Positions 1-57,124 of a stretch of 64,000 bases of DNA are shown here, one piece after another. Position numbers and translations under genes: made by a program. Location: NCBI GenBank assembly GCA_965228195.1, contig OZ245797.1:646540-710539 (forward strand), in the 5' to 3' direction. The notes under the pieces are model-generated. The model did no database searches, was not told the DNA's origin, and was given only the letters and a program-made list of their open reading frames with translations. Position 1 is the first letter of the stretch. The number at the start of each line of letters is the position of its first letter. Origin of the DNA: Candidatus Cloacimonadales bacterium (GTDB taxonomy: Bacteria; Cloacimonadota; Cloacimonadia; G963667145).

Positions 1-324
1 CTGGGTCATCCTCTTGCGGACAAACCCCAAGGTGGCAACCTGCGATGCTCCGCGGGAGACAGCGTCGTTTCTGATAGCCGCACTGACATCCACCCCGTCC
101 AGCAAAATCGTCTCTCCGTTGTCGGCAAAGCTGATCTTCAGCGCTCCCACCACCTCTTGCAGCAAAAACGAATCTTCCAGCTCGATGCCCATCTTTTGCA
201 GCTTCAAGGCGCAAGCCCTATACATTGCCCCTGTGTCTATATAGTTGATGCCCAGGGCCTTCGCCACCAGCTTAGCAGTGGTGCTTTTCCCCGAGGCGGC
301 AGGTCCATCTATGGCGATTATCAT
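1..324 (-). CDS. cmk: cytidylate kinase, N-terminal part (gene continues past the window edge)
   Basis: Minus-strand translation from the ATG at 322-324 gives MIIAIDGPAASGKSTTAKLVAKALGINYIDTGAMYRACALKL..., with the P-loop GPAASGKST typical of Cmk. The start overlaps the upstream gene's stop as ATGA. The ORF-track + strand ORFs here are antisense artefacts. Confidence 0.85.
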   Translation of the reverse strand, partial: MIIAIDGPAASGKSTTAKLVAKALGINYIDTGAMYRACALKLQKMGIELEDSFLLQEVVGALKISFADNGETILLDGVDVSAAIRNDAVSRGASQVATLGFVRKRMTQ

Positions 325-1022
325 ATCCTTCCCTCTAAATCTTTTAAATACGGATTGTGTTTTTTTTGCTCACCCAAGGTGGTTTGCTGTCCGTGTCCGG
401 GGTAAACCTGCAACTCATCTGGCAGGTCAAGTAGCCTTTTCTTGATCGAGTCCATGAGCTGGCGAAGGTCTCCGCCGGGCAAATCGCACCTGCCTACACT
501 CAGATCGAAAAGGGTGTCACCCGAGATGAGCACACCATCGCCCAAGAAACAAACCCCGCCCGGGGTGTGTCCAGGAGTGTGCAACACTGAAAGCCGCTGG
601 CTCCCCAAGGCGATCTTATCGCCGTCTTGCAAAAATCCGTCCGCCTTGGGCGAGATCACCTTTGAATCAAAAAATGCGCTCAAGTTAGCTTTGGCATCGG
701 TGAGCATCTGCTGGTCTGCCCGATGAATCAAGAGCTTCGCCTCTGGATAAGTCTTTTTGAAATACCCGTTGCCACCGATATGATCAGAGTGTCCGTGCGT
801 GTTCAAAATAAACAACAGCTCCAGCCCTTTTTGGGCAATAAACTCGCTAACTTCGCTGCCGGGTGCGGCAGGGTCGATCAACGCCGCCTTGCCACTGTTT
901 GGCTCGTAAACCAAATAGGTGTTCGTCTGGTAACCAGGCAACAAAACAAACTTTTCTATCTTCAACATAAACAACCTTCCTTGAATTTTGAAAAATAGCA
1001 AAATTCGAGGATTATCTGTCAA
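321..1022 (-). CDS. MBL-fold metallo-hydrolase (hydroxyacylglutathione hydrolase-like)
   Basis: 233 aa with the HGHSDHIGG (HxHxDH) metal-binding motif. Confidence 0.85.
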   Translation of the reverse strand: MTDNPRILLFFKIQGRLFMLKIEKFVLLPGYQTNTYLVYEPNSGKAALIDPAAPGSEVSEFIAQKGLELLFILNTHGHSDHIGGNGYFKKTYPEAKLLIHRADQQMLTDAKANLSAFFDSKVISPKADGFLQDGDKIALGSQRLSVLHTPGHTPGGVCFLGDGVLISGDTLFDLSVGRCDLPGGDLRQLMDSIKKRLLDLPDELQVYPGHGQQTTLGEQKKHNPYLKDLEGRI

Positions 1023-1062
1023 GTTCTTTAGCTGAATTTGAAGCGAAGAAAGGCAATATTTA

Positions 1063-1114
1063 TATGACCACTAAAATATAGTCTCAAATTTATAGCTTCA
1101 TTTTAGTGGTCATA
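1063..1114. repeat. perfect inverted repeat: 15-bp arms (tatgaccactaaaat / attttagtggtcata) separated by 22 nt
   Basis: Read directly in the sequence. It lies about 40 nt upstream of the MBL-hydrolase start codon, so it could be an operator or a bidirectional terminator. Confidence 0.5.
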
Positions 1115-1144
1115 AAATAAGAATTAAAAGTGAAAAATGAAAAT

Positions 1145-1267
1145 TTCACCTACGGTGGGTCTCCACCTTTTCCCATAAGTATCAAGGTAATATGTTCTTT
1201 TCTCCTGCGGAGGGCTTACTCTTTTCGGACTGCCGAAAAGAGTAACAGAAAAGACAGCTCCGCTTCA
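1145..1267. repeat. left composite repeat of AT-rich cassette
   Basis: Modules M1 (1145-1171, ttcacctacggtgggtctccacctttt), M2 (1202-1227, ctcctgcggagggcttactcttttcg), a 10-bp-stem hairpin (1219-1242) and M3 (1257-1267). All three modules recur reverse-complemented at 2562-2679. Confidence 0.55.
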
Positions 1268-1536
1268 GAGCGCCAGCGACGGGGCGTGTCACCAGCAGAG
1301 TAAAAAAGTGTGGTTGTTCCCGCTTATTACCCGTAGTCTTGTCATTTTTGATATTTGGCTTTGCACCTCTATTTAGAAAGTGGTTGGTGTCACTGGCTTA
1401 ACAAAGTAACGAAAAGGGGCTAATTTCCCTTTAAGCGGAGAGTTTTCCCACCCTAAAGTTAGCACTAGCTTTGCTGGCGTTTTTTTTGTTAAAAAATTAT
1501 TTAATTGACAGAAAAATTTGGGCAAGTTTTCTTGGT

Positions 1537-1545
1537 TGCTATAAT
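1537..1545 (+). promoter_or_regulatory. putative extended -10 promoter element (TGcTATAAT)
   Basis: tgctataat lies 120 nt upstream of the ORF at 1669. There is no good -35, but the extended -10 may compensate. Confidence 0.3.
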
Positions 1546-1668
1546 GAAAATATGAAAAATACAGATAGCAAGACAAATAGAGTGATATACAATGATGATA
1601 GTGAGCAATTATCAAACATAGCGTATTTTAACTGTGTCTTAATATAAAATAACAATTTAGAGGAAAAA

Positions 1669-2124
1669 ATGATTACATCAGCAAAAGGTCATAATGGTCA
1701 AATTGAGGTTTATGAGAACAAAATAATCATAAAAAGAAAAGGATTGCTGGCATTTGCCACTCAGGGTTTTAAAGGTGAAAAAGAAATATTTATAAATCAA
1801 ATTTCGTCTGTTCAACTAAAAAAAGCAAGTATGCTTATCAATGGCTATATACAATTTACATTCATGGGTGGAAAAGAGGCAAAGGGTGGATTATTTCAAG
1901 CAGGATCAGATGAAAATTCTGTACTGTTTAGGGTTAGTCAACAAAAAGATTTTGAAAAAGTAAAATCTGCAATTGAAAATATTATTTCAAAATCTTTAGT
2001 TAATAATACCCAACAAAGTGGGTCTTCTGCTGATGAAATCAAAAAGTTTGTTAAACTTAAAAATGAAGGTGTGATAACAGAAGAAGAGTTTCAGAAAAAG
2101 AAAAAGGAATTATTAGGACTATAA
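1669..2124 (+). CDS. small protein with an N-terminal bacterial PH-like domain and a C-terminal SHOCT domain (hypothetical)
   Basis: 151 aa. RBS AGGA lies 7 nt upstream. The C-terminus EIKKFVKLKNEGVITEEEFQKKKKELL is a SHOCT-like motif. GC is about 33%, far below the neighbouring genes. Confidence 0.6.
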   Translation: MITSAKGHNGQIEVYENKIIIKRKGLLAFATQGFKGEKEIFINQISSVQLKKASMLINGYIQFTFMGGKEAKGGLFQAGSDENSVLFRVSQQKDFEKVKSAIENIISKSLVNNTQQSGSSADEIKKFVKLKNEGVITEEEFQKKKKELLGL

Positions 2125-2311
2125 AACTGACACTGCAGATCGTTTCTACGCATAATGTCCAGCAAGCGATAACGCCAAATTTTGATGCCAAACTCCTCTT
2201 GCGAATATTTAAGGCGCCTTCGGCTTGGGCTACACCACATTTTTGCGGTACAAAAAAGAAGTATGGGGTTGCGGTGGAATTTTTCATTTTTAACTCTTAA
2301 TTTTTTCTTTT

Positions 2312-2371
2312 CTGACCTGACCACATAAATGAAGTCTTGATTGATTAGCCGTATTTATGTGGTCAGGTCAG
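2312..2371. repeat. long perfect palindrome (19-bp stem, 22-nt loop), possible terminator
   Basis: ctgacctgaccacataaat ... atttatgtggtcaggtcag. It sits downstream of the SHOCT ORF, with only a weak T-run after it. Confidence 0.45.
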
Positions 2372-2561
2372 ATTTGGGGTGGCACTCTCCGCTTCATCGG
2401 GGTCACTTTTTTTCCTTTCTTGGTCGAGCAGAGACACTTGGCACTTTATCTAGGTATTAAAAACGCAAGACCAAAGTGATTCGCCCAGTCAGGAAAAAAT
2501 CTCGGAGATGCTCCCCGCCACGGTAATCTTTAAGACATCTCACGACCTGTCTCTAGCGAGT

Positions 2562-2679
2562 TGAAGCGGAGCGGTTTTCTTTTCCCCTCCATCTTTTCGT
2601 TGAGCGGTCAACGAAAAGGTGGAGACCCACCGTAGGTGAACCACTCGTCAAAACGAAAAGAGTAAGCCCTCCGCAGGAG
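2562..2679. repeat. right composite repeat of AT-rich cassette (reverse complement of modules M3, M1, M2)
   Basis: rc(M3) 2562-2572, an 11-bp-stem hairpin 2593-2618, rc(M1) 2614-2640 and rc(M2) 2654-2679 are each 100% identical to the left-end modules. Confidence 0.55.
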
Positions 2680-2750
2680 TAAACAAAAATAATTTACTTA
2701 ACAAAATAAGGAAAGGAGAGGGTGCTTACCTGCCCCGCAAAAAAAAAACA

Positions 2751-2787
2751 GATTAGCTCTGTCTTTTGATAATAGACAGAGCTAATC
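2751..2787. terminator. 14-bp perfect-stem hairpin (gattagctctgtct / agacagagctaatc)
   Basis: Read directly in the sequence. It lies between the cassette and ssrA, preceded by an A10 run and followed by aatttt. Confidence 0.35.
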
Positions 2788-2848
2788 GGGCAATTTTGCT
2801 AAAATCGGAAAAATCTATTGACAATCTACCGCCTCAGAAAACCTTTTT

Positions 2849-2877
2849 TACTCAAAATCAAAAGAGGAACTTATATT
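2849..2877 (+). promoter_or_regulatory. possible ssrA promoter (-10 tatatt at 2872-2877, weak -35)
   Basis: tatatt lies 8 nt upstream of the mature tmRNA 5' G. The -35 is poor. tmRNA is processed by RNase P, so transcription could start further upstream; a consensus ttgaca sits at 2818-2823. Confidence 0.25.
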
Positions 2878-2885
2878 AAACACCA

Positions 2886-3256
2886 GGGGGTGAAACTGGT
2901 TTAGACAGAGGTTTTAAGCGACTATCGGTGCATATCGGGCAATGTTTGGCAATCCCGTAAAACTGTTCCAAGCAAACTCAAAGTAGACGGAAACGATAAC
3001 TACGCAATGGCTGCCTAATTAAGGCGCCTGTCTCATCGAGAAGGTTTTTGACCACTTCTTGATAACCGAGGCATCATTTTTGGTCGAATCAGCAAAAGAG
3101 GTCGGTTTTCGCTTTTTTTGTGAAACTTTTTAGAAAGCTCGCCAGAGGATTTAGGTTGATTGTTCCCTTGCCTTTGGTTAAATTAAAACAACTAAGTATG
3201 TAGATCCGACAGCGGTTGACTTTTGGACGCGAGTTCGACTCTCGCCACCTCCACCA
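2886..3256 (+). ncRNA. ssrA: tmRNA (transfer-messenger RNA, SsrA)
   Basis: The 5' end GGGGGTGAAACTGGTTTAGACAG resembles the E. coli tmRNA 5' end. The 3' end carries a T-arm (gcgag-TTCGACT-ctcgc), the acceptor strand CACCTCC and CCA, and pairs with the 5' GGGGGTG. An internal tag ORF ...GAC GGA AAC GAT AAC TAC GCA ATG GCT GCC TAA encodes (D)GNDNYAMAA, resembling ANDENYALAA. Total length is 371 nt. Confidence 0.9.
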
Positions 3257-3286
3257 TTTTAATAATTTTAGGGAGAGTATCTATTA

Positions 3287-5937
3287 TGAAAATCAATCTA
3301 ACTATCGACGGGAAAAGTTACGTTGGTAAACAAGGGCAAACTGTTTTGGAAGTTTGCCGTGAGAACGACATCTTCGTGCCTACTTTTTGTCACGACCAAA
3401 GGCTAAAACCATACACATCTTGCTTCATCTGCATCGTGGAAGTAAAAGGCGACCGAGGCAAGTTCTCGCCATCTTGTTCCACCCAGATCCAAGAAGGTAT
3501 GGAGGTCACCACCGACTCTGATGAGATCAGATCAACTCGCAAGATGAATCTGGAGCTTTTGCTCTCTAACCACCTTGGCGATTGCTACGCCCCCTGCACG
3601 ATGGAGTGTCCCAGCACCGTAGATATTCCCGGCTACATCTCGATGATCTCCAGAGGGATGTACAAAGAGGCTGTGCGCCTGATAAGAGAAGAGAACCCTT
3701 TGCCGCTGGTGTGTGGCAGAGTTTGTGCTAGACCTTGCGAGGATGTTTGTCGCCGACACAACATCGACTCCGAGGTTGCTATCGATTGGCTAAAAAGGTT
3801 TGCCACCGATTACGAGCGTAGCCACGGCGGACCACTGCGCATCAACAAAGAGAACTCCACTGGCAAGAAGGTTGCCGTTATCGGCTCAGGACCAGGCGGA
3901 CTGGCTTGTGCCTACTATCTTTCCCTGCAAGGCCACTCTCCGGTAATTTTCGAGAAGTTACCTGAGCCGGGCGGAATGCTTCGTTACGGCATACCTGCCT
4001 ATCGGATGCCTCGTGATCTACTCAGAGAAGAGATCGACTACCTTTTGAGCTACGGCTCGGAACTTCGTTGCAACCAAGCTTTGGGCAAAGATTTTAGCAT
4101 CGCCGAGTTACAAAAAGATTACGACGCCATCTTCTTGGCTACCGGCGCTCAAAACGGCTCTTCGGCAAGAGCAGAGAACGAAGAGTTGGCACTGCAAGGT
4201 GTTGACTTTTTGCGAAAACTGAATTTGGGCGACGCTTACGATTTTGAAGGCAAGACCGTGGTGGTGCTGGGTGGTGGAAACACCGCTATCGACTGCGCTC
4301 GCTCATCTGTCCGTTTGGGAGCCAAGAAAGTTATCTTGGCTTATCGTAGAACCGAAAAAGAGATGCCGGCTGCCGACAACGAAATCGTCGATGCCAGAGA
4401 AGAAGGCATTCAGATCAAAGAGCTTTGCGCTCCGCAAAAATTTAACGGCGAGTCTGATAACCTCAAATCTATCACCTTAGATTTGATGAAGCTGGGCGAG
4501 CCCGACGACTCGGGCAGAAGAAGACCGGTAAAAACTGGCGAGCAAGAAGATCTGCTTTGCGATATCGCCATTGCCGCTATCGGACAAAAAGTTGACCCGA
4601 TCGGCTTAGACGGCGTAGATCTGGAAAGCTGGGGAACGATCAAATACGAGCAAAGTTTTGCTACCAATGTTGAGGGCATCTTCACCGGTGGCGACGCTGC
4701 CCGTGGTCCTGGTATAGCTATCCAAGCCATCGCCGATGGCAAACTAGCTGCCCGCTCGATCAACCAATACCTAAAAGGTGAGGCTGTCACAGCCAAAGAC
4801 GCTTACGACGATTTGGGCTTCTACATCAAAAGAAGCGACCTCCTTTCCAAGAAAGAGCTCAAAGAGTATCTATCCGACAGAGAGTCTTTGCCAAAGTGTG
4901 AAATGCCGATGATCGAACCCAAAGAGAGGGTGAAATCTTGGGACGAAGTAGAAAAAGGACTAGACCTGCAGACCGCCCTCAAAGAGGCTGAAAGATGCTT
5001 GGAGTGCGGATGCCAAGATGTTGGCGAGTGCAAACTCAAGAAATACGCCGAGATCTACTCTGCCGATTGCACCAGATTTAAAGGCGAGGTGGATATCAAC
5101 CCCACCGACCAATCTCACCCATATCTTGCCCACGACCCAGCCAAGTGCATCTTGTGCGGAAGTTGTGTGAGGATTTGCCAAGATCTAGAAGGCGTCAACG
5201 CCCTGGGCTACACCAACCGCGGCTTTGCCTCGATTGTTCAAACCGACTTCAACGACGGCTTCAAGCTCTCTCGCTGTATCGGCTGTGGCGCCTGTATAGA
5301 AGCTTGCCCGGTGGGAGCTTTGACCGAGAAAGTTACCAGCGGACACCAAGGTCCCTTAAAAGGCGAGATCGTCGCTGGCACTTGCCACGCTTGCGGAGAT
5401 GAGTGTGCTATCCAGATAGAGAAGATCGATAACACCATCGTCAAGGTAAGCGCCGACAAAGACAAAGGACTGGGTCTCATCTGTAAAAAAGGCAAATTTG
5501 CCTTCACCAGCGAACAAAAAGATGACCAGACTATTGACGACTCTTTGCGCCAAAAGTTAGCACTTTGCCAAGATTTAAAGACGATAAGCGGTGATGAGCT
5601 GAAGAGTCAAACCATCTTTTACCTAGGCTCAACCAGCGAAGAGTTCAACTCTGTCAGCCAAAGGGTGCTTTACCAAGGCAGCTACTATCTGTATCACACC
5701 CAACCTTCTTTCCTTGAGAAAAATGCACTTGCTTGCTTCACTGACCAAGACGAAATTTTGAAAAAAGCGGTCGCAGAAAAGGGTCTGGTAGTGGTTAATC
5801 CGGTGGCTTTTAGCAAAGATAAACTGCAAAATATCATCTCTGTTTGCCAAAAAAACAGTTTGCCGTTGAAACTGCAATCGCCCATCTCTAACTCACTGGA
5901 AAGATGTAACTTAAAACCATACAGCTTTGAAGCTTAA
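3287..5937 (+). CDS. multi-domain iron-sulfur flavoprotein with an N-terminal 2Fe-2S domain, a GltD-like domain and NuoG/Fdh-N-like FeS domains
   Basis: True start is MKINLTIDG at 3287, because the ORF-track 3223 start overlaps tmRNA. The N-terminus carries CxxxxC..CxxC motifs. The GltD region includes GSGPGGLACAY and a second Rossmann segment VVVLGGGNTAIDCA. HxxxCxxC, CILCGSCVRIC, CIGCGACIEAC and a C-terminal CHACGDEC follow. The C-terminal ~200 aa have no recognised motif. Confidence 0.8.
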
Positions 5938-6044
5938 TAAGCTAAATAACTGAAAGATAGTATTTTTATTGTTATTTTCTATTGACAGATTGCCGAGCTA
6001 GCTTTGCAGATGGTAAAAAATCAACCTACACATAAGGAGAAATT

Positions 6045-6317
6045 ATGACGAGAGAAGAAATTGTAAGTAAAATTGCAAAAGATGCTGAGATTAACAAAAA
6101 ACAAGCCGCCAGTGCTCTTTCTTCTTTTTTAGCAAGTGTTACTGACGCTTTGGCTAAAAAAGATAAGGTCGCTTTGGTTGGATTTGGCACTTTTTCGGTA
6201 AAACACAGATCCGAGAGAGCCGGTAGAAATCCACAAACTGGAGCTAGCATCACTATCCCAGAAAGAGATGTACCTTCTTTCAAAGCTGGTAAAGGCTTGA
6301 AAGACGCTGTAAAATAG
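6045..6317 (+). CDS. hup: DNA-binding protein HU
   Basis: 90 aa. MTREEIVSKIAKDAEINKKQA...FGTFSVKHRSERAGRNPQTGASITIP is a typical HU family sequence. RBS AAGGAGA is present. Confidence 0.9.
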   Translation: MTREEIVSKIAKDAEINKKQAASALSSFLASVTDALAKKDKVALVGFGTFSVKHRSERAGRNPQTGASITIPERDVPSFKAGKGLKDAVK

Positions 6318-6342
6318 TTACTACCAAATTGAAAAAAAACAA

Positions 6343-6386
6343 GGCAAGAGCTTTGAACTTAGTTTTAAACTCTTGCCTCTTGTTTT
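6343..6386 (+). terminator. putative rho-independent terminator after hup
   Basis: The stem ggcaagag/ctcttgcc is followed by tcttgtttt. Confidence 0.4.
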
Positions 6387-6507
6387 AAACTTTAGCTTGA
6401 GAGCCTTAATAGTTTTGCCTGGTTTTTTAGTGAAGTCAGCAAACCATTAAGGTTTTTACACTCTTAAGATACAGCCCCCTTGAAGGAGATTGTCGTAAGG
6501 AGACGAA

Positions 6508-7635
6508 ATGAAATTTTCTATAGAAAAAAAAGATATTGCCAATAAAATCGCCCATCTGGTGACCGTTGTGCCGAGCAAAAACGCTATGGCTATTTTGACC
6601 ACTTTTCTTTTGGAAGCAGATCAAGACGAAGAGACCGTTACTATCAGTGCCTCCGATATGGATATTACCGTCACGGCGAAGATCAAGGCGAATGTGCTGG
6701 AGTCGGGCAAGACTGCCATTCCGGCTAAATATTTCAGCGACATCGTTGCGGCTCTACCCAGTAGCACCATCTACATCCAACAAAACGAAAACAAGCTCAA
6801 GATAAACTGCGGAAACTCCAAGTTCTCCACCCCGATTATCGAAGACTTTTCGGTGTTCCCCATCATCCCCAAGATCGACTTCTCCAAGGCGATCGAGTTC
6901 GAGATGGATATGTTCACCAGGATGATCTCCAACACATCTTTTGCCGTTTCCAACCGCATCAACTCACCGGTGCTCAACGGTATCTTTTGGCAACTAAGCC
7001 CCCAAGGGCAAATAATGGTCGCCACAGACGCCAGCAAGATTGCCGAGGTGACCATCAAAGAAAATTTGAGCGTCTCTGAGGAGCTGAGCAAGATTATGCC
7101 GGTGAAGACGACTCTGTTTATCAGCAAGATCCTCGATGAGAAAAGCAACAACATCAAGGTGCTTTTTGAAGAGAACAGAATCGTGTTCAACTACGAAAAT
7201 TTCACCATCTTCTCGCATGTGATCGAGGGCGAGTTCCCCGACTACAAGAGAGCTTTCCAAGTGGAAAACGACAGCGTTTTGGTGCTGAACCGCACCGAGA
7301 TCAGCGACGCCATCAAACGCGTCTCTTTGGCGTCGTCCGATATAGATTTTCGGGTGCTGCTGTCTATCAAAGAGGACGGAGTTACCTTGAGCTCTTCCAA
7401 CGACGAGAAAGGGTTTGGTAGCGAAGATCTGCAAGCCGTGGAGGTCAAATCGGAGCCGATGGAGGTTACACTCAACTACAAGTTTTTGCTCTCCATCTTG
7501 AACGTCATCACCAGTGAGAATGTGAAGATTTGCCTGAAAAGCTCCACCGAGGCGATCCTTATCTACAACCAAGAGCAAGTGGACGAAAACTTTAGTTCCC
7601 GCTTCCTTTTGATGCCCCTGAGGGTGAGAGGATAA
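6508..7635 (+). CDS. dnaN: DNA polymerase III beta subunit (sliding clamp)
   Basis: 375 aa. MKFSIEKKDIANKIAHLVTVVPSK... matches the clamp domain pattern. RBS AAGGAGA is present. Confidence 0.9.
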   Translation: MKFSIEKKDIANKIAHLVTVVPSKNAMAILTTFLLEADQDEETVTISASDMDITVTAKIKANVLESGKTAIPAKYFSDIVAALPSSTIYIQQNENKLKINCGNSKFSTPIIEDFSVFPIIPKIDFSKAIEFEMDMFTRMISNTSFAVSNRINSPVLNGIFWQLSPQGQIMVATDASKIAEVTIKENLSVSEELSKIMPVKTTLFISKILDEKSNNIKVLFEENRIVFNYENFTIFSHVIEGEFPDYKRAFQVENDSVLVLNRTEISDAIKRVSLASSDIDFRVLLSIKEDGVTLSSSNDEKGFGSEDLQAVEVKSEPMEVTLNYKFLLSILNVITSENVKICLKSSTEAILIYNQEQVDENFSSRFLLMPLRVRG

Positions 7636-24431: not shown

Positions 24432-24779
24432 CTAATACTTTCTTTTCTCTTTAATCTTGGCTCTTCTACCTTTTGCCTCACGCAAGTAGAACAGTTTGGA
24501 TCTTCTCACCTTACCGAATCTGAGCACCTCTAACTTGGCAATCAAAGGAGTAGACAAAGGAAAAATCCTTTCAACAGCCACACCGTTGCTCACTTTGCGA
24601 ACCGTAAAAGTTTTGGAAATGTCGGTTCCTCTTTTTTGAATCACAATGCCTTGGAAAGCTTGAATCCTTTCCTTGGTACCTTCGGTAATCTTATAATCTA
24701 CTCTGACAGTGTCACCAACGCCAAACTCTGGCAAGTCGGTTCTCATCTGCTCTTTTCCAACTTCGTTCAATATATCCAT
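24432..24779 (-). CDS. rplS: 50S ribosomal protein L19
   Basis: [16 protein letters not shown] and [13 protein letters not shown] are conserved in L19. Confidence 0.9.
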
Positions 24780-24790
24780 TTTATAACTCC

Positions 24791-25339
24791 TTATGCAGAC
24801 AGCAGTCTATCCAACACTATAGCCACGGCACTTCTCACAGAAAGATGATTGTAATGCTTCTTGCCTTGCAAAGGCGTCAGCACATAATCGGCATCGTTAT
24901 GCAACTTTTGAATTAGTCCCCCTCCGGTGCCAAACAGCAAAAGTATGGATCTTGTTTTCAGACCCTTGAGACTCTCAAAAGTTATCTGTCCGCTCATTTT
25001 TTTAGCCGTAGTAGTAACAGTCGTTGGATGTTCACCATCCTCATTTTTAATTTTATTTATTACTTCTTTTAAATTTTTTGCGTATCTTGTAATATTCAAA
25101 GCTTCTACTCGATCAGGATTGTAAGCTTTTGCTATCTTCGTTTTCCAAAACCCCAAGATGTCGTCCAAAAATCTCTTTTGTCCTATCAAAGGATTTACCA
25201 CGAAAAAGTTTTCCACTCCGAAACAGGCACAACTTCTGGCGATATCATGAACATCCAAGTTGGTGATAGATGTCACTATCTGCTCCCCTTTTTTGTTCAC
25301 CACGCCTTCGTGCAAAAGAGCCACATAAATTTTTCTCAC
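24791..25339 (-). CDS. putative SPOUT-type RNA methyltransferase (Methyltrn_RNA_4/DUF2168-like), translationally coupled to trmD
   Basis: 182 aa starting at a GTG that overlaps the trmD stop as GTGA. The ORF-track ATG start at 25396 would overlap trmD by 60 nt. It contains LLLFGTGGG. The family assignment is from memory of the trmD neighbourhood in Thermotoga. Confidence 0.4.
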
Positions 25340-55364: not shown

Positions 55365-57124
55365 CTTTTTCTTCTCTCTTTCAAAATTTTTGCGTATCTT
55401 CTGATGATCCTAGCGGCGATGGGTGCTGCCACCGAACCACCTCCACCGTTGACGGTTTCCAAAAACACCAGATAAGCTAGCTTAGGATAGAAAGGGTCTT
55501 GGAACTTGCAGTAGCCGGCGAACCAAACATGCGGCAAGTCGCTCATATGGTTTTGTGCCGTGCCTGTCTTGCCATACATCACCGGGTCCCTGAGTTTTGC
55601 CAGAGGAGCGGTGCATTTTTTGGCATTCACCACTTGGTAAAGCCCTTTTTGGATGATGCGCAAGGTGTTTTCACTGATGTTCAGCGGATAAGAGGCGAAG
55701 TTGAGATCTTGGCTACTACCCTCTACCCTCTTGAGGAAATGGGGTTGTCGCCACACGCCGTCGTTACCCAAGGCTCCATAGTAAGCCAGCATCTGCAAGG
55801 GCGTGGTTTGCAACTCGCCCTGACCGATAGACAGGTTCACCTTGAACCCTTGTTGCGAGGAGGTAAAAGGAAACTTCTTCTTATACCAGTAGCGAGTGGG
55901 AAAAAATCCCGAAACCTCTCCGGGCAGATCGACACCTGTCTTGACGGTCACCCCGCTTTTGCGGGTGAACTGGCGAAAATTTTCCAGATTGAGACGCAAA
56001 GACAGATCGTAAAAAAAGACATCACAAGAGTGTTGCAAAGCTCCCACCACATTTTGAACGCCGTGTCCTTTGCGTAGCCAACAGCGAAAGATGTTGCCTC
56101 CGTAGCGAAACTTGCCCGTACATTTTTCGAGGGTGGTGTGCTCATCGATGATGTTCTCCTCCAAACCCAAAGATGCGGTGATCGGTTTGAAGATAGAGCC
56201 AGGCGGATAGACGGCGCTGATACCCCTGTCCAAAAGGGGGTTGAGCGAATCGACCAGAAGAGAGTGCCAAACATCGCGACTGATGTTTTGGCTCAGGAGG
56301 TTACTGTTGTATTCGGGCAAGCTGACATAAGCCAGTATTCCACCGCTGGAAGCGTCCATCACCCCCACAAACCCTTTGTAAGAGCTGCCCTCAAACATCT
56401 TGGCGATCATCTCTTGCAACTCAGAGTCGATGCTCAAGACGATAGATTTGCCGTCTTGCACCTGCAAACCTTCGCTGAAAATTCCCAAAGATTTACCCAA
56501 GGCGTCTTTTTGTTCCAAGCGATAGCCAGGGCTACCCCGCAGCAAAGACTCGTACTGTTTCTCCAGCCCTCTTTTGCCGATGAAGCTGTTGAAGGTGTAA
56601 CCTTTGCCTCGCAACTTGCGATACTCATCTGCCCCGATGTTGCGAACATACCCCAAGAAATGGGACTTGATCTTGTAGTTACGCCTGCTCTCGTTTTTGA
56701 TCTGGATGGCAGGGTAGTAGTTTTGGTTTTCGGCTATCTTGACAAACTGCGGATAAGGAAGATCTTCGTGGAGCAAAATCTCTTTGCCGCCTTTGGAAAG
56801 CTTTTGCTGAAAACGATCCACGAAGCTGCTATCGGCACCAAACACGGAAGAGAGGAAACTGGTGTAGCGGGACAAGGAGTCCACTTGAGAAGGCAAGATG
56901 TAGAGGTTGATGGAGGAGCGATTGACTGCCAAGGGTCTATAAAGGCGGTCGTAAATCACGCCTCTGGTGGGCAACACGCACCTTTTGACGAAGCTGTTGT
57001 TCAGGGCAATCTTTTGATAATGTTCCCCTTGTTTGACCTGCATCCACAAAAGGCGCAAGATCAGCACCAAGAAGCTGACCACGACCAAGAAGAAAAAAAC
57101 TTTTAGTCTAGCGTGGTTCTTCAT
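55361..57124 (-). CDS. mrdA: penicillin-binding protein 2 (elongation transpeptidase)
   Basis: SIFKP (SxxK), SCD/SxN region and KTGTA are present. It follows mreBCD. Confidence 0.9.
   Translation of the reverse strand: MKNHARLKVFFFLVVVSFLVLILRLLWMQVKQGEHYQKIALNNSFVKRCVLPTRGVIYDRLYRPLAVNRSSINLYILPSQVDSLSRYTSFLSSVFGADSSFVDRFQQKLSKGGKEILLHEDLPYPQFVKIAENQNYYPAIQIKNESRRNYKIKSHFLGYVRNIGADEYRKLRGKGYTFNSFIGKRGLEKQYESLLRGSPGYRLEQKDALGKSLGIFSEGLQVQDGKSIVLSIDSELQEMIAKMFEGSSYKGFVGVMDASSGGILAYVSLPEYNSNLLSQNISRDVWHSLLVDSLNPLLDRGISAVYPPGSIFKPITASLGLEENIIDEHTTLEKCTGKFRYGGNIFRCWLRKGHGVQNVVGALQHSCDVFFYDLSLRLNLENFRQFTRKSGVTVKTGVDLPGEVSGFFPTRYWYKKKFPFTSSQQGFKVNLSIGQGELQTTPLQMLAYYGALGNDGVWRQPHFLKRVEGSSQDLNFASYPLNISENTLRIIQKGLYQVVNAKKCTAPLAKLRDPVMYGKTGTAQNHMSDLPHVWFAGYCKFQDPFYPKLAYLVFLETVNGGGGSVAAPIAARIIRRYAKILKERRKR

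Follow-up and report, generated by a model that had tools for sequence, protein, structure and literature searches.

An AT-rich DUF4429-SHOCT gene between long inverted arms in the spacer upstream of ssrA in a Candidatus Cloacimonadota genome

The DNA analysed here (the window) is a stretch of 64 kb of a Candidatus Cloacimonadota genome and represents about 4% of that genome; the nearest genomes in GTDB are metagenome-assembled genomes of Cloacimonadota of about 1.5 Mb. Near the left end of the window, the gene of an MBL-fold hydrolase and the transfer-messenger RNA (tmRNA) gene ssrA are arranged divergently. The interval between them is the unusually long, low-coding stretch before ssrA which had already been pointed out by an earlier reading of the letters alone (the sequence-only reading). 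It contains an open reading frame (ORF) for a protein with a PH-like and a SHOCT domain, placed between two long inverted arms which are composed of related short motifs and accompanied by hairpins. The genes and signals of the locus are as follows:

to 323, minus strand: cmk, at the left end of the window
321-968, minus strand: MBL-fold hydrolase gene (Pfam Lactamase_B, 8e-33)
969-2885, no strand: MBL-ssrA interval of 1,917 bp, called non-coding
1537-1545, plus strand: extended -10 element TGcTATAAT, read from the sequence, with a poor -35 region and absent from the promoter scan list
1669-2124, plus strand: ORF of 151 aa, DUF4429 (PH-like) plus SHOCT, with a GAGG ribosome-binding site 6 nt upstream
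2886-3256, plus strand: ssrA (tmRNA) with tag GNDNYAMAA, found with Rfam (RF00023, 160.5 bits) and ARAGORN, intact and outside the insert
after ssrA: gene of an 883-aa Fe-S/flavin oxidoreductase, then HU and dnaN

Leftward of the spacer, the genes cmk, ispH, rpsA and rnf were found.

Two Pfam domains were assigned to the product of the ORF, DUF4429 (1.8e-9, 38.5 bits, cut-off 25) and SHOCT (1.1e-7, 31.8 bits, cut-off 27). The AlphaFold2 model, calculated from an alignment of 42 sequences, reached a pLDDT of 88.9 and shows a beta-sandwich with a long capping helix, followed by two short helices. The top matches of this model in Foldseek were PH domains; the best ones in the PDB, with a probability of up to 1.0 and an E of about 6e-3, included those of Avo1, Vps36 and Pob3/Spt16. 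The PH-like plus SHOCT gene with ribosome-binding site and extended -10 element, as described in the sequence-only reading, was thus recovered by Pfam, structure prediction, fold comparison and inspection of the sequence. SHOCT is a widespread short C-terminal domain of obscure role, for which oligomerisation has been proposed (PMC3581485). The interior is AT-rich, as had also been remarked: the ORF has a GC content of 29.6% and the core (1456-2374) one of 31.8%, compared to 46% in the window and 49.5-52.6% in the flanking genes.

The search for homologs yielded 140 proteins scattered across phyla, and the next best of them (64% identical) is encoded on a contig without similar flanks. Matches were obtained to the PHROG families 2700 and 888, both of unknown function, and no PADLOC defence model matched the DUF4429-SHOCT protein. 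A homolog of 55% identity (P0034), present on more than 100 contigs, is encoded in a prophage directly downstream of a cI-like helix-turn-helix repressor gene and a gene of 61 aa. The same prophage carries a holin gene and a diversity-generating retroelement (RVT_1 plus bAvd; L178-L182:2318-3453, 5100-6450). The position of P0034 is typical of exclusion or moron genes expressed during lysogeny. Another DUF4429-SHOCT homolog adjoins ParE/Phd. In a BLAST search of region 1023-2885 against plasmids and phages, only the SHOCT-coding part found matches, which were located on Bacillus plasmids. No other ORF of at least 30 aa in 1023-2885 had a Pfam match, and no integrase was among them. Because the family is scattered, the GC content deviates, PHROG families match and a homolog resides in a prophage, the gene is best regarded, on the grounds of sequence comparison, as an accessory gene of unknown function which is laterally mobile and associated with phages; lateral acquisition had likewise been suggested before.

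The arms that enclose this gene were defined by global alignment, nhmmer and shuffle controls, and contain the following sites:

1145-1455, plus strand: left arm, 311 nt
1145-1172, plus strand: R-a (M1), left arm
1195-1236, plus strand: R-b (M2), left arm
1216-1245: R-b hairpin, left arm, stem 1216-1228 / 1233-1245, 13 bp perfect
1248-1270, minus strand: R-c1, includes M3, left arm
1432-1452, plus strand: R-c2, left arm
2375-2686, minus strand: right arm, 312 nt
2375-2394, minus strand: R-c3, right arm
2562-2586, plus strand: R-c4, includes M3', right arm
2587-2624: R-a hairpin, right arm, stem 2587-2603 / 2608-2624, 17 nt, 94%
2613-2640, minus strand: R-a (M1'), right arm
2645-2686, minus strand: R-b (M2'), right arm

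Three modules, M1, M2 and M3, had been reported to recur in inverted orientation at full identity and in permuted order, and both claims hold at the same or nearly the same positions. For the modules, the whole 64 kb was searched at up to 3 mismatches, with dinucleotide shuffles as control. M1 (1145-1172 against 2613-2640) is complementary at 28/28 positions and had 2 matches in the window and 0 in 100 shuffles. M2 (1204-1227 against 2654-2677) is complementary at 24/24 positions and is part of a longer 42-nt version (1195-1236 / 2645-2686) at 86%. M3 (1258-1267 against 2562-2571) is exact and has a third, direct copy at 2387-2396. Chance occurrence in the shuffles was nil for all three modules. 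On the plus strand the order is M1-M2-M3 ... M3'-M1'-M2', with M1 and M2 exchanged relative to a simple inverted repeat.

The inverted homology is not limited to the modules. In place of the roughly 120 nt per end described earlier, it comprises the entire left arm and the reverse complement of the entire right arm with 58.5% identity; hairpin A (see below) had not been listed at all. With nhmmer the arms matched each other nearly over their full length (positions 6-317, E = 2.4e-10), and the alignment score was 65, compared to 11 +/- 5 in shuffles with a shuffle maximum of 31. The hairpins at both ends are present as reported, with stems longer than those given before (13 bp perfect on the left; 17 nt, 94%, on the right). 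Apart from the cassette, the 64 kb contain only two other long repeats, a 24-nt inverted pair (92%; 24740-24763 / 33397-33420) whose members are separated by 8.6 kb, and a direct pair of 47 nt (74%; 25056-25102 / 55368-55414).

M1 and M2 are about 70% alike and represent two variants, R-a and R-b, of one motif of about 28 nt. The motif consists of a 4-bp mini-hairpin (CACC-TAC-GGTG or CTCC-TGC-GGAG), GG, a few bases and CTTTTC. The pattern CGGWG[GC][GT]...CTTTTC matched 6 times in 64 kb, exclusively within the arms and three times in each. The 8-mer AAGCGGAG occurs in 4 copies in this 1.5 kb and in 4 copies in the other 62 kb, and its sites c2 and c3 constitute the fourth R site of each arm. 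There are thus eight R-like sites, oriented + + - + in the left arm and, as its exact mirror image, - + - - in the right arm.

When the arms are aligned by position, the outer-left a faces the outer-right b and the inner b faces the inner a, each pair being about 70% alike. The identities of 100% run crosswise, between outer-left and inner-right and between inner-left and outer-right. The inner R site of each arm possesses its own matching hairpin partner: TTACTCTTTTCGG / CCGAAAAGAGTAA for the left inner site (b) and, read on the minus strand, CTCCACCTTTTCGTTGA / TCAACGAAAAGATGGAG for the right inner site (a).

For comparison with relatives, the loci of six related Cloacimonadota were employed (L003, L004, L168, L170, L176 and L177; MBL protein 65-70% identical), together with that of the closest relative, L166 (MBL protein 74% identical). 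The six share the divergent arrangement of MBL operon and ssrA. Their MBL-ssrA spacers measure 172 bp (L003 and L176), 201 bp (L004), 297 bp (L168), 417 bp (L170) and 692 bp (L177), and in none of the six was a DUF4429 gene found in the spacer. The insert is missing in these six, and the stretch is a lineage-specific gain, in support of the sequence-only reading. The DNA gained by the window amounts to about 1.7 kb (approximately 1031-2750) and is located 5' of ssrA, with a conserved promoter on either side:

990-1030, minus strand: promoter of the MBL-hydrolase/cmk/ispH operon, TTGACA at 1016-1021, left conserved edge
2806-2885, plus strand: ssrA promoter and leader (CGGAAAAATCTATTGACAATCTACCGC...), right conserved edge

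The block TCTGTCAAGTTCTTT of the MBL promoter is kept in L166, L168, L170 and L177. The ssrA promoter and leader are 82-84% identical to those of L168 and L170 over about 85 nt; TTGACAATCT of the leader is present in L003 too. The right edge block reads A-run / GCTAAAAxCGGAAAAATxTATTGACAA and begins in the window at about 2739-2806. Between these edges, the middle parts of the spacers are rich in palindromes, differ in every genome and are not alignable among the relatives, so that no exact insert junction can be defined. Within the ssrA leader of the window (2860-2885), about 26 additional nt (CAAAAGAGGAACTTATATTAAACACCA) separate the conserved ACTCAAAAT from the mature 5' end; a similar extension is present in L168, L170 and L177, and the leaders of L003 and L004 are without it (L003:7829-7845). 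Downstream, HU and dnaN are located at 6045-7635 of the window, about 3 kb behind ssrA, with no dnaA between ssrA and dnaN. The order ssrA-oxidoreductase-HU-dnaN is kept in L168 and L170.

The spacers of L170 and L177 contain GTAG-tagged palindromes (GTAGAGACGCC...GGCGTCTCTAC), which form an inverted, REPIN-like doublet in L177 (REPIN, a doublet of repetitive extragenic palindromic, REP, sequences), as well as palindromes of the type GGATTCCCGC...GCGGGAATGAGGG (L170:5760-5788, 5826-5843; L177:3534-3663, 3798-3825, 3840-3908). Within the loci of 8-12 kb, these palindromes are confined to this spacer, and so is GTAGAGACGC.

The JGI contig of L166 starts 465 nt upstream of the MBL gene and carries in this part a hairpin that is 84% identical to hairpin B of the window over 50 nt including the loop (nhmmer E 5.8e-8). 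It is flanked by two direct repeats, 98% identical and with a period of 267 nt, each of which contains three or four small hairpins (L166:1-470); the contig probably ends there by an assembly break at the repeats. An R-b-like motif, TTTTCTCTTGCCAGAGCGGCTTACTC, has the mini-hairpin CTCT/AGAG instead of CTCC/GGAG, and a further motif, GAGCGG..TTCTTTTCCC, resembles the tail of the right arm. The loop motif CACCAATGATTA is common to L166 and L177. Relative to the MBL gene, the hairpin-B unit has opposite orientations in L166 and in the window. Because L166 and more distant relatives carry related or other palindromes at this position, the repeats look like residents of a hypervariable spacer and not like imported transposon ends. 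L175, from the same JGI sample as L166, belongs to a more distant organism (tag ANENYALAA; ssrA at 2906-3275); its ssrA is preceded by genes of a dicarboxylate symporter and an Asp/Glu racemase and not by the MBL operon, so that the L166 locus is not completed by it.

Hairpins, terminator-like sites and the segments associated with them are distributed over the spacer of the window as follows:

1060-1077 / 1100-1117, no strand: hairpin A, 18-nt arms, 94%, 22-nt loop, stem core TGACCACTAAAAT; -20.4 kcal/mol, z -7.75
1114-1147, plus strand: segment X, AT-rich, linking hairpin A to the first R site
1458-1487, plus strand: terminator-like hairpin then T8 (consensus scan), just before the ORF promoter; weak stem, -7.2 kcal/mol, z -0.9
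2277-2310, minus strand: X', inverted copy of X, 82% complementary to X
2311-2330 / 2353-2372, no strand: hairpin B, 20-bp perfect stem, 22-nt loop; -34.9 kcal/mol, z -9.25
2387-2402: weak terminator-like site
2517-2495, minus strand: terminator-like site (consensus scan)
2739-2748: A-run (T10 on the minus strand) after hairpin C, the whole element spanning 2739-2787
2751-2767 / 2771-2787, minus strand: hairpin C, 17-nt arms, 94%; -22.1 kcal/mol, z -8.70

Hairpins whose arms reach 14 nt or more number 7 in the 64 kb, 5 of them within 1000-2800. The palindrome at 2312-2371 and the hairpin at 2751-2787 of the sequence-only reading correspond to hairpins B and C; both exist, with longer stems than assumed (20 bp perfect and 17-nt arms at 94%, respectively), and palindromic elements do bracket the gene. 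Hairpin A is homologous to hairpin B and to the hairpin of L166. Hairpin A with segment X is repeated in inverted orientation as X' with hairpin B (local alignment score 51), and the alignment of X and X' extends into a decayed start of R-a (AAAATTCCACC). Between A and B, two stem pairs are altered on both sides (CACATAAAT/ATTTATGTG versus CACTAAAAT/ATTTTAGTG). Variation in the R mini-hairpin is compensated in the same way (CACC/GGTG, CTCC/GGAG, and CTCT/AGAG in L166). Judged by the z values of -7.8 to -9.3, the compensated changes in stems and mini-hairpins and the separate partners of the inner R sites, the hairpin structure appears to be under selection. Hairpin C with its T10 looks like an intrinsic terminator for leftward transcription; its A-run is kept in L168 and L170, the hairpin itself is not. 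The heptamer GGCTAAT was seen in the loops of three hairpins, namely 1413-1432 (at 1417-1425), hairpin B on the minus strand (2342-2350) and L166:199-207; it could be a loop recognition motif or a chance occurrence.

Further copies were searched for with nhmmer in the window and in eight loci of related Cloacimonadota, and additionally in about 90 kb of relatives' loci, in IMG/VR and in plasmid and phage records. Neither the remaining 62 kb of the window nor any of these other sources yielded a further copy of the modules or hairpins, and none of the approximately 60 other intergenic regions of the 64 kb contained a copy of the repeats. In IMG/VR, a degenerate R motif gave two chance matches in GC-rich phage coding sequence, and the hairpin pattern gave no match. 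Target-site duplications were looked for at the flanks 1145/2640, 1195/2686 and 1138/2685; there was no clean repeat, only AAAAA/AAAAT in A-rich sequence. These results speak against the multi-copy element of the miniature inverted-repeat transposable element (MITE) or REP type that had been considered before. Mobility genes were sought among 20 ORFs at 6-28 kb (Pfam, E <= 1e-8) and among the genes of the left flank. The 20 ORFs comprise 16 housekeeping genes and 4 without a Pfam match at this threshold, with no transposase, recombinase or Y1 transposase of the RAYT type (REP-associated tyrosine transposase) among them; no recombinase was present in the left flank either. In agreement with the sequence-only reading, Rfam 15 (E <= 1) assigned nothing but tmRNA; the hairpins gave sub-threshold chance matches to miRNA models. 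Neither the GTAG nor the CGTC tag was found in hairpins A, B and C or in the R sites.

Three assembled copies of the locus from the same population (two on L001, one on L002) are collinear with the window, and no alternative orientation was observed among them. L001 (7,824 nt), L002 (5,611 nt) and L169 (7,279 nt) are linear contigs with a coverage of 7-17x, compared to 899x for the main chromosome of a related genome. The fold-back junctions that they contain connect window positions 2830 and 3163 (2830/3163), position 2759 with ispH, and position 2092 with the ispH side; a cmk/oxidoreductase junction was noted as well. Because these junctions lie at unrelated positions and coverage is low, the fold-backs are probably chimeric long-read artefacts of deeply covered genomes and not structural variants.

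Several other identities of the region were considered and rejected. A replication origin was suggested by dnaN 3.2 kb downstream, the divergent genes and the AT- and repeat-rich sequence; there is no cluster of DnaA boxes (14 found, 10.6 expected, none in the region), the GC skew tracks only the gene strand, and the spacer of relatives measures only 172-201 bp. By eye, no R'/R'' GTTRRRY sites of an integron attC were seen, GTAAGC faces outward, contrary to IS66-type ends, and, contrary to type III toxin-antitoxin systems with their repeats, the sites are not tandem and no toxin fold is present. M1 and the 3' end of ssrA have only CTCCACC and a T-run in common (by eye), and a derivation of M1 from ssrA was dismissed.

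We tentatively favour, with somewhat less than even confidence, the interpretation that the MBL-ssrA spacer is a hypervariable site which breeds palindromic repeats and in which a phage-type "moron" gene has been captured. Palindromic modules would arise, duplicate and invert locally between the divergent promoters of the MBL operon and ssrA, and the spacer would have grown in the lineage of the window from a few hundred bp to 1.9 kb. A resident unit of hairpin and R site may have been duplicated in inverted orientation at least twice, giving rise to one arm, a second arm (arms 1 and 3) and the decayed unit of hairpin B and X'; the long hairpins accompanying the arms would then derive from a resident ancestral hairpin. 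A self-contained AT-rich gene of phage type would have come to lie between the arms, where its own extended -10 promoter could drive its separate transcription. The 3' end of the mRNA may be closed or stabilised by hairpin B, and perhaps by the weak site at 2387-2402, in the manner of REP-like hairpins. The hairpin-T8 site on the plus strand (1458-1487) and hairpin C with its T-run on the minus strand would reduce the read-through that connects the foreign gene with the promoters of MBL and ssrA. The module pairs might be kept identical by recombination or gene conversion acting on inverted copies. The element appears not to be autonomously mobile.

Some observations weigh against this interpretation. 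The plus-strand terminator at 1458-1487 is weak (z -0.9), and the insulating and stabilising roles are inferred. The copy search in the window covered about 4% of the genome, and a low-copy dispersed family is possible. The L166 contig ends inside the repeats, so that a DUF4429 gene or a second arm might lie beyond its end. The full identity of two short modules in swapped positions, within arms that are 58% identical, differs from what simple gene conversion predicts. Because conversion between aligned arms should homogenise positional partners and not swapped ones, a sequence-specific constraint on R-a and R-b is likely. The placement of the foreign gene exactly between the arms is left unexplained by a spacer that merely breeds repeats.

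A first alternative is a non-autonomous transposon with a passenger gene, of the mobile-insertion-cassette or large-MITE type. The arms would be its ends, each with several binding sites for a transposase which inserted the entire unit and which is encoded elsewhere or has been lost. Perfect inverted repeats of 28 nt and 24 nt surround the foreign gene, the mirror-oriented R sites, four per arm, recall the multi-site ends of Mu, Tn7 and IS21-type elements, TG...CA can be read at 1138 and 2685, and the relatives' spacers are without the gene. We nevertheless regard such a transposon as unlikely: no second copy of the ends turned up in the sequence searched, the flanks offer AAAAA versus AAAAT and no convincing target-site duplication, and neither a transposase among the 20 ORFs nor a partner insertion sequence (IS) was found. 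Moreover, the two ends have different variants as their outermost sites, with a similarity of only about 70%, and similar flanks are missing around the closest DUF4429 homolog. At the same locus of L166, R-like and hairpin motifs occur in a different arrangement, which favours a resident origin of the repeats. Alternatively, the repeats might belong to a genome-wide family like REP, REPIN or bacterial interspersed mosaic elements (BIMEs), spread by a RAYT-type Y1 transposase and piled up in this spacer, with the gene arriving independently. In its short palindromic modules, which alternate in orientation, the mosaic seen here resembles BIMEs. In addition to this mosaic, the break of the L166 contig inside repeats and the GTAG-tagged palindromes of L170 and L177 at this site, including the inverted doublet of L177, point in that direction; the largest REP superfamily is characterised by the GTAG tag (PMC3733652). 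The hairpins and R sites of the window lack both tags, however, the other intergenic regions are free of copies, GTAGAGACGC is restricted to this spacer in the L170 and L177 loci, and the scanned ORFs include no Y1 transposase, which makes a genome-wide family improbable. An origin from a tmRNA-targeting prophage or genomic island that has since decayed, also put forward in the sequence-only reading, would fit the proximity to ssrA, the phage-associated cargo family and the low GC content. Islands of this kind use the 3' end of ssrA as their integration site, which is duplicated in the process. Here the insert is found ahead of the conserved ssrA promoter, a position which largely excludes this origin, and the conserved oxidoreductase gene directly follows ssrA. 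Neither an integrase remnant nor a repeat of the ssrA 3' end was noticed on reading, the Pfam check having covered ORFs of at least 30 aa; an island remnant is hardly credible. An assembly artefact is practically negligible as an explanation, since short perfect modules in diverged arms are unlike a fold-back misassembly.

Two further alternatives assign a function to the arms themselves. If the arms were two convergent paralogous small RNA (sRNA) genes (left about 1125-1487 on the plus strand, right about 2700-2495 on the minus strand), R-a and R-b could be seeds or protein-binding hairpins whose order is irrelevant. Identical modules of 28 and 24 nt in sequence of 58% identity, directed from outside to inside, are the pattern of sRNA paralogs. 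Terminator-like sites follow each arm on the proper strand (plus, 1458-1487; minus, 2517-2495), a promoter-like AT-rich stretch precedes the left arm (TTTATA-18-TAAAAT, 1089-1118), and transcription arriving from upstream would be kept out of the right arm by hairpin C with its T-run. The fold z values of the relevant strands (-2.0 for the left arm, plus; -2.6 for the right arm, minus) are matched or exceeded by those of the opposite strands (-3.5 and -4.7), the promoters are weak or hypothetical, and neither covariation support nor an Rfam match was obtained. Complementarity between the arms and tmRNA, the ORF leader or the MBL start did not exceed 9-mers of low complexity, and the 11-mers of the modules form no target cluster elsewhere in the window; we consider a pair of sRNA genes quite unlikely. 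A site-specific recombination module of the inverton or shufflon type is based on the interleaved order a> b> ... <a <b, which allows an inversion and then a deletion, locking the orientation as in FLEx (flip-excision) constructs. It would account for the two perfect inverted pairs of related and distinct sites of about 28 nt, for the additional inverted pairs c1/c4 and c2/c3 and, by the FLEx-like order, for the criss-cross identity; the opposite orientation of the hairpin-B unit in L166 suggests a past inversion. This reading is very improbable, given that no recombinase was found in the ORFs and flank genes scanned, that the three assembled copies show one orientation, that promoter and ORF both lie inside the segment, so that a flip would not switch the gene, and that the sites have no obvious core and spacer symmetry of tyrosine or serine recombinase sites. 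Its most specific form, in which the eight R sites are targets of an unlinked recombinase and the interleaved pairs a natural counterpart of FLEx, a one-way, self-locking cassette flip, is highly improbable; if true, it would explain why just two modules are 100% identical and swapped in arms that have drifted to 58%. Under the tentatively favoured interpretation of a repeat-breeding spacer, a streamlined (about 1.56 Mb) uncultured bacterium would have acquired and housed an accessory gene of phage type, and one intergenic spacer of a bacterial family would repeatedly breed palindromic repeats, which is useful for annotation and unsurprising. The crosswise identity points to a sequence-specific partner, be it protein, RNA or recombination.

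Among the closest known systems are the mobile insertion cassettes (MICs), for example MIC231 of Bacillus cereus and the qnrD and qnrS2 MICs (PMC3913671). MICs and large MITEs have in common with the present cassette the inverted repeats around one or few passenger genes, the lack of a transposase, the size of about 1-2 kb and the existence of relatives without the insert. They differ in having ends that match a known IS, target-site duplications and several copies, none of which were found here; the arms of the cassette, in turn, measure 311/312 nt, contain eight sites in total and have their modules swapped, and motifs related to those of the cassette occur at the same locus in a relative. 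REP and REPIN palindromic elements carry GTAG or CGTC tags (PMC3733652) and are associated with RAYTs (PMC8266576). REPs, REPINs and BIMEs resemble the present elements in being short extragenic palindromes of alternating orientation which form mosaics, show compensated stem changes and likely act in termination or mRNA stability. The elements described here differ by the absence of the tags, by their restriction to one locus in 64 kb instead of scattered high-copy occurrence, and by the lack of a RAYT among the 20 scanned ORFs. Morons are known from lambdoid phages as accessory genes of prophages with their own promoter and terminator and a deviant composition. The present gene shares with them its small size and single occurrence, its own promoter and ribosome-binding site, the deviant GC content, the PHROG matches and a family member beside a prophage repressor; it differs by its solitary position outside a prophage, in a spacer of the chromosome where long inverted arms enclose it. 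Invertons and shufflons (Hin/Gin, Fim, R64 Rci) and the engineered FLEx/DIO (double-floxed inverted orientation) constructs likewise have inverted pairs of sites around a segment, and the heterotypic interleaving is formally that of FLEx. In contrast to these, the cassette has no recombinase in the scanned genes, a single orientation, promoter and gene in the same segment, and no recognisable recombinase core. With tmRNA islands it shares foreign DNA beside ssrA, and it differs from them by an insert 5' of the ssrA promoter, without an integrase or a duplicated ssrA 3' end. The architecture as a whole (arms of 311/312 nt, eight mirror sites and crosswise-perfect modules) was matched by no described family in this analysis, and its components, namely the gene family, the hairpins as a class and cassettes flanked by inverted repeats, are of known kinds.

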